A stretch of 64,000 bases of DNA from the NCBI RefSeq assembly GCF_018977255.1, contig NW_024704778.1:248001-312000 (forward strand). The letters run 5' to 3'. Positions 5,589 through 8,602 of this stretch are shown here, in pieces. Both the position numbers and the translations under genes were made by a program. This DNA comes from Callorhinchus milii (Eukaryota). The notes under the pieces are model-generated. The model was not told the DNA's origin, did not search any database, and worked only from the letters and a program-made list of their open reading frames with translations. Each line of letters begins with the position of its first letter. The stretch's first letter is position 1.

Positions 5589-8500
5589 CCAGCGGGGGAA
5601 AATTCGGGGGTGGGGGGTTGGGGGGAATATTCCACTTGAGCAACTTGACCCTCACAGCTGCCACTGTCCATCTGTGCCGTTAGCTGTTGTAATCACAATC
5701 TCTCCGGTGCATCCTCTCTCTCTCTCTCTCACACTCTATCTCTCTCTCGTATCTGTCCGTCTCTCTGGAGAATAGTGCAGAGCTGCGGTGGGTGGGGGGG
5801 GGGGGCGCGGCGGTGGGGGGGTGTTGGGGAAGGGCTGTGTGGTTGGAGATGCTGCCCTTCATCAGACGTTAAGACTCTCTGTCTGTGCTCTGGTCAAGTG
5901 GACGTTAAGTATTCGGTGGCTGGAGCGGTGTGGGGGGGGGGTGTGGGGGGGGGGGCGGGAGAGAGGAGTTTATTCCCTCCTGGGTATCCTGGCCAAAAAT
6001 CGCTCGCTCGCTCGCTTCACGGCTCAGGGGTCAGACCCCTCGCCTCGCAATCCAGAGATACCCGGGTTCCATTCCCGGCCGGGCCGGGTCAGGGCGAAAC
6101 CTTAGGCAAGTTTCCCTACTCCCCCACACGCTCCCCCCACGCACACGGACACACACACACACACGCGCGCGCGCGCGGGCAGGCAAGTTGTCGTTTGCGG
6201 GAACGGCGGGGCTCGGTGGGGGAAAGGGGGTGACAGTCTGCGGGTGTGTTTTTGGCAGCACCCTGCTCTCGGCGTTCCTGAACCTGGTGCTGAGCTGCTC
6301 GGTCCTCTTCCTCACCATCGTGGCCAGCGTGATGGTCAGCGTGGGCTTCAGCTTGTGGTGCGACGAGGTGACCGATCACGGGAGAATGCCTAACAGGTGA
6401 GTGCGGCTTCCTCTCTTACTCACTCAGCTCCTTATCCTCCTCACTTACCCCCCCCCACCCCACCCCCACCCCGATCCACTCCACCATCGGTGGCCGTGTC
6501 TTCAGCCCCTGCGCCCCGAAACTCTGTCACTCTCTCCCTCCCTCAATCATTGAGCAAGTTTCCTTACACCCCCCACCCCCCCCCACACACACACACACAC
6601 ACGCGCGCACACACGCCTGTGTCCCCGGCAGTCAGGAGGAACCCGCTTTTTAGTCCATTGGGGGATCACTTTCCGGGGGTAATAATCCCTTCAATAAATG
6701 ATAATGTGGTCGCTCAATCCACGGCTGTTTGGGTGGGGACGTCGCTGGTCAATATGTTATATTGACCCATTAATAACTAACTAATTGAATATTATATTAT
6801 TAAGATATTATTCTCTTTCCCAGCTGTGAAGAAATGCAGTCAATGAACCTTCACCTGGATGTAGACACCTCTTCCTTCTATATCCATTTCAGGGTGGCAC
6901 AGGTGAGCCTAAAATTCCAACCAGTCTTAGCCTGCACAACACCCTCTCCTTTTCTCCGTATACAGTAAAACTCACATAAGTTGTGTCGGTCGGGACAATA
7001 CTATTTGGAGTCGCTGTGGCTCAGTCATCTCCCAAGCGAGAGGATCCGGGTTCGATTCCCGGCCGGGCAGGGTCAGGGTGAAACGTTGGCCAAGTTTCCT
7101 TACTCTACGCACACACACACGCGCGTGCGCACACACACGCACACACACACACACACACGCGCGCACGCCTCTGTTTACCAGCAGTTAGTAGGAACCCGCT
7201 TGTTAGTCGATTGGCAGATCGCTTTCCAGGGGTAATAATCCCTTCAAAATAATAATAAATTGGTCACTTCAATCCACGTCTGTTTGTGGGGACGTCGTTG
7301 TGCGCAATTGGCTGCTGCGTTTCGCCTGCAAAACACACAGTCACTACACCTGGGTACGATTCCCAGGCAGACTGGGTTCGAAACACTGATTTTTCGATGC
7401 CTTGGGACTGTGTAAATGTCACGTGTTGTTGTTGTGGTTGTGATTGTTGTTGATGTGGTTCTTGTTGTGGTGGTGGTAGTTGTGTTTGGCTTGCAGTTTG
7501 GGCTGTGGAGTATCTGGGTGGTGGTTGTTGTGGTTGGTGTTGGTGTTGGGGTTGGTGTAGGTGTTGGGGTAGGTGTTGGTGTTGGTGTTGGGGTAGGTGT
7601 TGGGGTAATGGCGGCTGTGTTTGGCTTGCAGTTTGGGCTGTGGAGTATCTGGGTTGTTGTAGTTGGTGTAGATGTTGTGGTTGGGGTTGGTGTTGGTGTT
7701 GGTGTTGGGGTTGGGGTTGGGGTTGGTGTTGGGGTAATGGCGGCTGTGTTTGGCTTGCAGTTTGGGCTGTGGAGTATCTGGGTTGTTGTAGTTGGTGTAG
7801 ATGTTGTGGTTGGGGTTGGTGTTGGTGTTGGGGTTGGTGTTGGGGTAATGGCGGCTGTGTTTGGCTTGCAGTTTGGGCTGTGGAGTATCTGGGTGTTGGT
7901 GTTGTGGTTGGTGTTGGTGTTGGTGTAGGTGTAGGTGTAGGTGTAGGTGTTGGTGTTGGGGTAGGTGTTGGGGTAATGGCGGCTGTGTTTGGCTTGCAGT
8001 TTGGGCTGTGGAGTATCTGGGTGGTGGTTGTTGTGGTTGGGGTTGGTGTTGGGGTTGGTGTTGGGGTTGATGTTGGGGTTGGGGTTGGGGTTGGTGCTGG
8101 TGTAGGTGTTGGGGTTGGGGTTGGTGTTGGGGTTGGTGTTGGGGTAATGGCGGCTGTGTTTGGCTTGCAGTTTGGGCTGTGGAGTATCTGGGTGGTGGTA
8201 GTTGGTGTTGGGGTTGGTGTTGGTGTTGGGGTAGGTGTTGGGGTAATGGCGGCTGTGTTTGGCTTGCAGTTTGGGCTGTGGAGTATCTGGGTTGTTGTAG
8301 TTGGTGTAGATGTTGTGGTTGGGGTTGGTGTTGGTGTTGGGGTGGTTGTTGTGGTTGGTGTTGGTGTTGGGGTAGGTGTTGGGGTAATGGCGGCTGTGTT
8401 TGGCTTGCAGTTTGGGCTGTGGAGTATCTGGGTGGTGTGGGCTGTACTGGGTGTCCTCGCCTTCCTGAAGGTCTATCGTAACTACAAGAGGAAGGAGTTG

Positions 8501-8602
8501 GCGCGCTGTCTGGCGCGAGAGAAGGAGCTGCTTCTCGATCATTCCGCGCGACGTCGCCCGGACCAGGAGCAGCAGCAGGAAGCGCCCAGTGTCTTCATCT
8601 GA
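4593..8602 (+). CDS. TMEM179B: Transmembrane protein 179B
   Basis: Exons 4593-4906, 6259-6396, 6824-6902, 8411-8602, all GT-AG and phase-consistent. Kozak gccgccATGG. Translation: [12 protein letters not shown]...CLLF...[14 protein letters not shown]...|[10 protein letters not shown]...VGFSLWCD...|SCEEMQ...[18 protein letters not shown]...FLKVYRNY...EKELLL. This is the four-TM TMEM179 family; the B paralogue is inferred from linkage to HNRNPUL2. Confidence 0.88.
7478..8435 (+). repeat. Tandem array of 8 copies of the TMEM179B intron 3/exon 4 junction, separated by (ggtgtt/ggggtt)n spacers
   Basis: Core (gcggc)tgtgtttggcttgcag|tttgggctgtggagtatctgggt. Post-AG positions: 7497, 7632, 7761, 7872, 8000, 8171, 8270, 8411. 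Confidence 0.95.

Follow-up and report, generated by a model that had tools for sequence, protein, structure and literature searches.

A tandem array of the last splice acceptor in a TMEM179-like gene of Callorhinchus milii, and a possible leak of splicing into its upstream copies

How does the spliceosome treat a last exon whose acceptor stands eight times in tandem before the real exon begins? This question is raised by one gene in the 64-kb window of Callorhinchus milii DNA analysed here (the whole stretch, to which all positions refer). An earlier note, made from the sequence alone, had argued that the spliceosome must either skip seven identical upstream acceptors or produce a ladder of isoforms, and the choice among identical 3' splice sites has been described as disputed (PMC1557585).

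The gene lies on the plus strand, with coding exons at 4593..4906 (its 104 aa at 4593-4904 match XP_042201209.1 with 100% identity, and a GT donor follows), 6259..6396 and 6824..6902, the coding sequence of the last exon (63 aa plus stop) at 8411..8602 and a candidate poly(A) signal of that exon, AATAAA, at 9225..9230. The donor at 6903 serves all eight acceptors in phase 0. Splicing exons 1-3 to 8411 gave exactly the 240-aa RefSeq protein XP_042201209.1, C. milii TMEM179-like, the single RefSeq product in a protein cluster of 1; the products of the other seven acceptors did not equal it, in agreement with the earlier view that only the copy at 8411 yields the normal C-terminus. The same note had called the gene TMEM179B, a name that has to be replaced by TMEM179-like given the RefSeq identity, the tree and the 50% identity (117/234 residues) with human TMEM179. 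The C. milii protein was 69-79% identical to a TMEM179-like group (zgc:153018) from sharks, coelacanth and lungfish and ~25% identical to an invertebrate TMEM179B-like group. No vertebrate TMEM179B was retrieved for the comparison, in which 10 of 150 hits were named. A tree of 21 chosen rows joined it to the shark, coelacanth and lungfish TMEM179-like proteins, and a 100/100 branch put it on the TMEM179 side, away from the TMEM179B-like group of the mollusc Pomacea. A precomputed assignment placed it in the TMEM179 family PF26158, and a separate comparison gave an atlas score of 0.97 and a TM score of 0.93; a Pfam scan of the full-length protein returned no family, nor did any of five scans of single exons and a 200-aa read-through. 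On these sequence comparisons we assign the gene to the TMEM179 family as TMEM179-like, a paralogue of human TMEM179. A moderately confident model (mean pLDDT 70.8) predicted four long helices for the protein and placed the junction residue, 178, inside helix 4 (residues 166-203).

The junction between the end of intron 3 and the start of the last exon was present eight times, in tandem and head to tail, at 7481-8433 (+), with first exon bases at 7497, 7632, 7761, 7872, 8000, 8171, 8270 and 8411. A 39-nt core (16 intron and 23 exon nt) occurred eight times in the window, always on the plus strand and inside the array, from copy 1 at 7481..7519 to copy 8 at 8395..8433, the only copy followed by the real exon; either half of this core was recovered in 0 of 1000 triplet-block shuffles of 7400-8440. 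A 59-nt core occurred seven times in the window, being identical in seven of the eight copies, with copy 1 differing upstream. The AG acceptor was kept in all eight copies and a TAA at -26..-24 in seven. Copy 1 lacks this TAA motif, carries a competing AG at 7478-7479 and has 16 upstream intronic nt in common with copy 8, compared with 36-58 nt for copies 2-7. The earlier count and placing of eight copies thus held, while the seven upstream copies, described as nearly unchanged, proved to be six identical ones and one altered one (copy 1). The G-run plus TAA motif that precedes copies 2-8 (8381..8389, +, before the last copy) is a candidate branch point, with A at -25/-24; at 27 nt from the acceptor it also forms a weak donor-like site.

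Acceptor-to-acceptor spacings, and so unit lengths, were 135, 129, 111, 128, 171, 99 and 141 nt. Units 1-3 (7497..7871, +) run from an exon head through a spacer to an intron tail and are open in frame 0, unit 4 (7872..7999, +) is the sole unit that is not a multiple of 3, and units 5-7 (8000..8410, +) are in frame with the last exon. The spacers are runs of Val/Gly-codon hexamers whose lengths differ in 3- and 6-nt steps, and the unit alignment showed that the units differ among themselves in length and sequence. A GT-rich intron tail before copy 1 (7421..7480, +) has 11-13-nt blocks in common with every spacer, and unit 6 starts with the letters of this tail. A decayed ninth copy near 7400, hinted at by the alignment, ranked 1448 of 6112 windows and was rejected.

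Repeats are abundant around this locus. Tandem repeats make up 28% of the non-N bases of the window, where 26 arrays passed the cut-offs, and the chance of a splice site lying in the end unit of an array is, roughly, about 1.5% per site; with such high local repeat cover, arrays that capture a junction are to be expected now and then. Related G-run hexamer arrays at 26674-27506, 29234-29501 and 42496-42809 mark the spacer motif as locally common. Closer to the gene lie an 83-nt repeat of 3.3 copies at 8705-8981, inside the presumed 3' UTR, a 54-nt minisatellite of 16 copies at 9391-10304, just behind the poly(A) signal, and related dispersed elements in intron 2 (6545-6740) and intron 3 (7081-7291) that are 71-87% alike in pieces and SINE-like by appearance. 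On the minus strand, 1968-2234 holds the first exon of an adenylosuccinate synthetase gene (PF00709) that diverges from TMEM179-like, with an AT-rich minisatellite (2416-3286) lying between the two, and a gene of the hnRNP U family lies at 13494-21108 (+), with SAP, SPRY and AAA_33 matches in order. Further on, two pairs of blocks are near-identical (95-99%; 29228-34986 with 42526-48272, and 37461-40349 with 49308-52218), the first copy of each pair carrying, between them, ATG2, inositol polyphosphate kinase and CENP-F Rb-binding fragments; seven N runs fall between 27929 and 44288, and these blocks may be a false or a recent duplication. Minus-strand CENP-F matches, N-terminal at 58552-58776 and C-terminal Rb-binding at 39126-39419, suggest a CENP-F-like gene at ~39-59 kb.

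Independent sequencing runs bear on whether the array exists outside the assembly. Four of 24 listed runs were compared, as 31-mer contigs, on one 451-nt stretch (8250-8700); two are DNA-like (X1, X2) and two RNA-like (X3, X6), the latter being RNA by guess. Fourteen of the 24 listed runs, with shares of 0.12-0.18 and including peat and biofilter metatranscriptomes, were read as matching through generic hexamer words and discarded as evidence, and short spacer contigs with 2-4 mismatches were not attributed to the TMEM179-like locus. Both DNA-like runs contained an 85-nt contig that matched 8263-8343 with 0 mismatches, an acceptor running on into spacer. At least one extra acceptor copy is present outside the assembly in X1 and X2, and the junction minisatellite is real. 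Core and exon contigs had depths of 26.4 and 6 in X1 (ratio 4.4) and of 19 and 9.65 in X2 (ratio 2.0), contig depth not being a copy number. Breaks delimited the core at 8381-8433 in X1 and at 8360-8433 in X2, with exon contigs from 8408 and 8404, respectively; the simulated assembled allele, unlike either, gave a core at 8375-8424 and a further break at 8395/8424. Because contig breaks and depth ratios differ between X1, X2 and the assembly, the array is likely to be polymorphic in length between animals. The break expected from the intron junction of copy 1 was seen in neither DNA-like run. This hints at a first copy with an intact TAA tail in these runs, and at an assembled copy 1 that either derives from a deletion or is erroneous. 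The possibility of an assembly artefact, raised by the earlier note itself, was in this way answered for the presence of more than one copy, while the count of eight was not independently confirmed.

We then considered splicing in the two RNA-like runs, which come from two studies and whose contigs omit rare forms. In both, a loose end precedes 8408, and its letters are the last ones of exon 3. X6 gave one 817-nt contig at depth 65.1, with exon 3 letters running unbroken through 8408-8645 and 579 nt upstream on the exon-3 side. The depth of 8.13 in this run equals 65.1 x 2/16, indicating that nothing else covered 8394-8407, and the pattern was that simulated for use of 8411 only. All upstream copies are therefore skipped in X6, one of two RNA-like runs, at contig level, in an animal whose allele may hold few copies; since contigs omit rare forms, minor upstream use is possible there too.

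X3 gave a different picture. Three contigs met at 8408-8437: the exon at depth 30.9, an array tail at 23.6 and the exon-3 side at ~17.8, a value obtained by subtraction that also predicts the neighbouring bins. The array-tail contig (91 nt, 8347-8437) had 2 letters other than the assembly, and no assembled unit tail has exactly 2. The exon-3 contig was unbroken over at least 255 nt upstream, without a branch at the exon-3 donor; given the 579 nt of X6, the value of 255 is probably a cap. Simulated even retention of intron 3 left 27 nt upstream on the exon-3 side and produced branches at the exon-3 donor and at 8433, whereas simulated use of an upstream copy of the type of copy 1, 5 or 6 gave a long exon-3 contig, as in X3. 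The same pattern as in X3 was also obtained by simulating RNA that covers only the 3' end of the array (scenario E). The tail contig does not break at 8433, which means that copies of the type of 2, 3 and 7 are absent from the X3 graph and that an allele unlike the assembled one must be assumed. Neither X3 nor X6 covered 8250-8297; by itself this is no proof of absence. For X3 such cover is predicted by every scenario on the assembled allele except E, which again calls for an unseen allele. With a shared stretch of only 30 nt in X3, joins of exon 3 to 8411 and to an upstream copy cannot be phased. These patterns fit upstream-copy use better than retention of the whole intron, 31-mer contigs falling short of proof, and we give such use in X3 a little more than an even chance. 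Followed from exon 3 at contig level, where the earlier note had proposed to count junction reads, splicing leads to 8411 in X6, and in X3 an array tail also enters the exon. The alternative that note had posed is a fair one, and both of its sides find some support, in the skipping seen in X6 and in a hint of upstream use in X3, with no ladder demonstrated.

The products that upstream use would yield depend on the reading frame. Recomputation bore out the frames given earlier: acceptors 8000, 8171 and 8270 share the frame of 8411, and acceptors 7497-7872 have a common frame that stops at 7926-7928 because of the 128-nt unit 4. One more base would bring this unit to a multiple of 3, and whether its length is real or an assembly error decides the frame of copies 1-4. 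The seven products, from acceptor 7497 to 8270 in order, would measure 320, 275, 232, 195, 377, 320 and 287 aa. Units 5-7 would add 57, 33 and 47 hydrophobic residues, and the inserts (33-57 residues per unit) carry at most one charge, with a 19-residue hydropathy of 2.3-2.75 against 2.18 for the normal helix. The translations agree with the hydrophobic, in-frame insert foreseen earlier, though it would fall inside predicted helix 4, just ahead of its hydrophobic part, rather than before the helix. Six of the seven units are multiples of 3 and free of stops in frame 0. Stops in the array occur in one frame only, the spacer codons of frame 0 begin with G and lengths change in threes, and an argument from selection for an open frame was rejected as uninformative. 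No insert-bearing protein was found among 95 candidates of 351-2000 aa, the range 252-350 aa lying outside the search, and at 78-251 aa all 5 matches among 8000 scored were ordinary proteins of 236-240 aa. Nor did any of the 8 other full-length vertebrate homologues aligned have an insert at the junction (one, P0003, has a divergent C-terminus).

The reading that we favour, at a probability of roughly 55%, is a junction minisatellite, likely variable in length, that is spliced by default at its last copy and leaks upstream in some alleles or samples. It may have begun when a short piece spanning the junction was duplicated in tandem, perhaps through the GGTGGTG that intron tail and exon head have in common, as suggested by the blocks that the tail shares with every spacer and by the start of unit 6 with tail letters. 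Copying of units and slippage of spacers by 3 or 6 nt would then have enlarged it. Since the 36 nt upstream do not differ among copies 2-8, whatever decides between these acceptors must lie downstream. Definition of the terminal exon would favour the copy with the real exon after it. The last copy would win as the only one followed by the normal exon, the others being followed by a spacer that is poor in A and rich in G-runs and UG: the array (7497-8410) contains 6.2% A, 31 runs of four or more G, 11 TAGG and 0 GAA, while exons 2, 3 and 4 contain 15-27% A, 0 G4 runs and 0 TAGG. Silencer activity has been described for the motifs UAGG and GGGG (PMC1079783), and in CFTR an exon is silenced by UG repeats to which TARDBP binds (PMC10078293). 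Masking of the upstream acceptor by RNA folding was rejected, with 8230-8480 folding no better than shuffles (z -0.13). A leak would give in-frame products with a hydrophobic insert of 33-57 residues in helix 4, likely to disturb topology and probably misfolded by-products rather than an adaptation.

Against this reading stands a real, if minority, possibility that the array is a classic silent mirage, in which upstream copies are always skipped and the array seen in X3 stems from RNA that had not been spliced, or had been processed only in part, and whose 5' portion went unassembled. The clean pattern of X6, the lone 240-aa RefSeq product and the ability of scenario E to reproduce X3 are all consistent with it, as are reports that the mirages of amphioxus do not disturb splicing (PMC3087553, PMC3902484). 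Even retention of the intron would nevertheless be expected to leave branches at the exon-3 donor and at 8433, and X3 has neither. Assemblers can prune low branches from contigs. The depth of the X3 tail, near that of the exon, also argues against silence, although several collapsed copies would inflate it. A stronger version of upstream use is an allele-dependent vertebrate splice switch, in which a large share of the mRNA in some animals or tissues enters an upstream copy and adds an in-frame hydrophobic segment of membrane length in helix 4, so that genotype sets topology or yield; we regard this as tentative and rather doubtful. A functional ladder or rheostat, with copy number or tissue tuning acceptor choice and longer proteins or a lower normal yield having consequences, is unlikely. 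The open, mostly threefold units, the difference between X3 and X6 and the hydropathy of the inserts would agree with it, yet frame and openness follow from a single founder unit with a chance of roughly 2 in 9, because spacers shift in 3- and 6-nt steps and frame-0 codons begin with G. Unit 4 breaks the frame, and neither the aligned homologues nor the protein searches yielded an insert.

Candidate donors do exist in the spacers, as the earlier note had pointed out from their GT sites, but its suggestion that copies could act as mini-exons found no support, and we consider it very unlikely. Donor-like sites at -27 and -39 of the next acceptor would give in-frame, open mini-exons from units 1-3 and 5-7, as in the intron-gain model proposed for mirages (PMC3087553). 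The donor-like sites, however, agree with the donor consensus at 4-6 of 9 positions, while the three real donors reach 6-8 of 9, and their distance from the next acceptor is too short for the two to be paired. No splice joint was found within 8250-8700 in any of the four runs, so that the sites at 8297, 8306, 8372 and 8384 show no use, and the X3 tail contig passes straight through 8372 and 8384. Least probable, and largely refuted, is a single genomic junction multiplied by the assembler. The N runs and near-identical blocks further along the window speak for such an error, and the missing copy-1 break in the DNA-like runs means that the assembled allele may be inaccurate in its details; against it, the acceptor-plus-spacer contigs recur without mismatch in both DNA-like runs, the units differ in length and sequence, and no N lies within 19 kb of the array.

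Among known systems, the closest are the 'mirage' minisatellites of amphioxus, reported for BflGb6, BflGb9, Adh3, troponin C and PGBD5, the BflGb6 array having 6 and 3 units in two haplotypes (PMC3087553, PMC3902484). Like BflGb6, the C. milii array repeats the 3' end of an intron with the 5' part of an exon, head to tail and with its splice signals, and normal mRNA is still made; its end unit is likewise less homogenised (copy 1, with 16 shared upstream nt against 36-58 for copies 2-7). It differs in belonging to a jawed vertebrate and a terminal exon, in its nested hexamer spacers of variable length and in the open frame of most units; and while mirages are reported not to interfere with splicing, this property holds in X6 but is doubtful in X3, which hints at use of an extra copy. 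Human minisatellites at donor junctions (F7 intron 7, CBS intron 13, 6-16, lamin B2 and PDGF; PMC1557585) similarly reiterate one splice site in polymorphic form, with the copy next to the real exon being used; in CBS and 6-16, two pseudo-sites close by are used as well (PMC1557585). In these genes it is the 5' site that is multiplied and the first copy that wins; in C. milii the multiplied site is the 3' one and X6 uses the last copy, a choice that a simple 5'-to-3' scan cannot explain. The first unit of the F7 type spans a donor boundary; here the repeated site is an acceptor, and the array resembles this type in its working without belonging to it. Variable boundary repeats that can be spliced out or kept are also a feature of the internal tandem repeats of exon-intron boundaries and of introns gained by tandem duplication (PMC2812944, PMC3443670), but the piece duplicated in C. 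milii contains a pre-existing junction and not an exonic AGGT, and no new intron is seen, with no joint in 8250-8700 in any of the four runs. A FAM20C VNTR at an intron-exon junction is said to affect splicing (PMC5941971). Our literature search, with most subscription papers outside it, yielded neither a paper on this locus nor an acceptor-side array of a vertebrate for which in-frame use is demonstrated, and the accessible parts of PMC10078293 and PMC13196383 describe no such case. By its sequence, we class the array as a further example, in a vertebrate, of the mirage type of repeat, and as an acceptor-side mirror of the F7 and CBS donor minisatellites; a possible in-frame leak is its only new twist on this known type.

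As a silent mirage, the array would show in a vertebrate what unstable repeats can leave behind where they are dense, and would caution those who annotate such regions. It matters more if the X3 signal reflects upstream-acceptor use, in contrast to the acceptor-side mirages reported to leave splicing untouched; the choice among identical 3' sites could then be tested on natural alleles with about 2 to 8 copies. If the splice switch holds true, the locus would provide a natural allelic series for the competition of identical 3' splice sites at a terminal exon.
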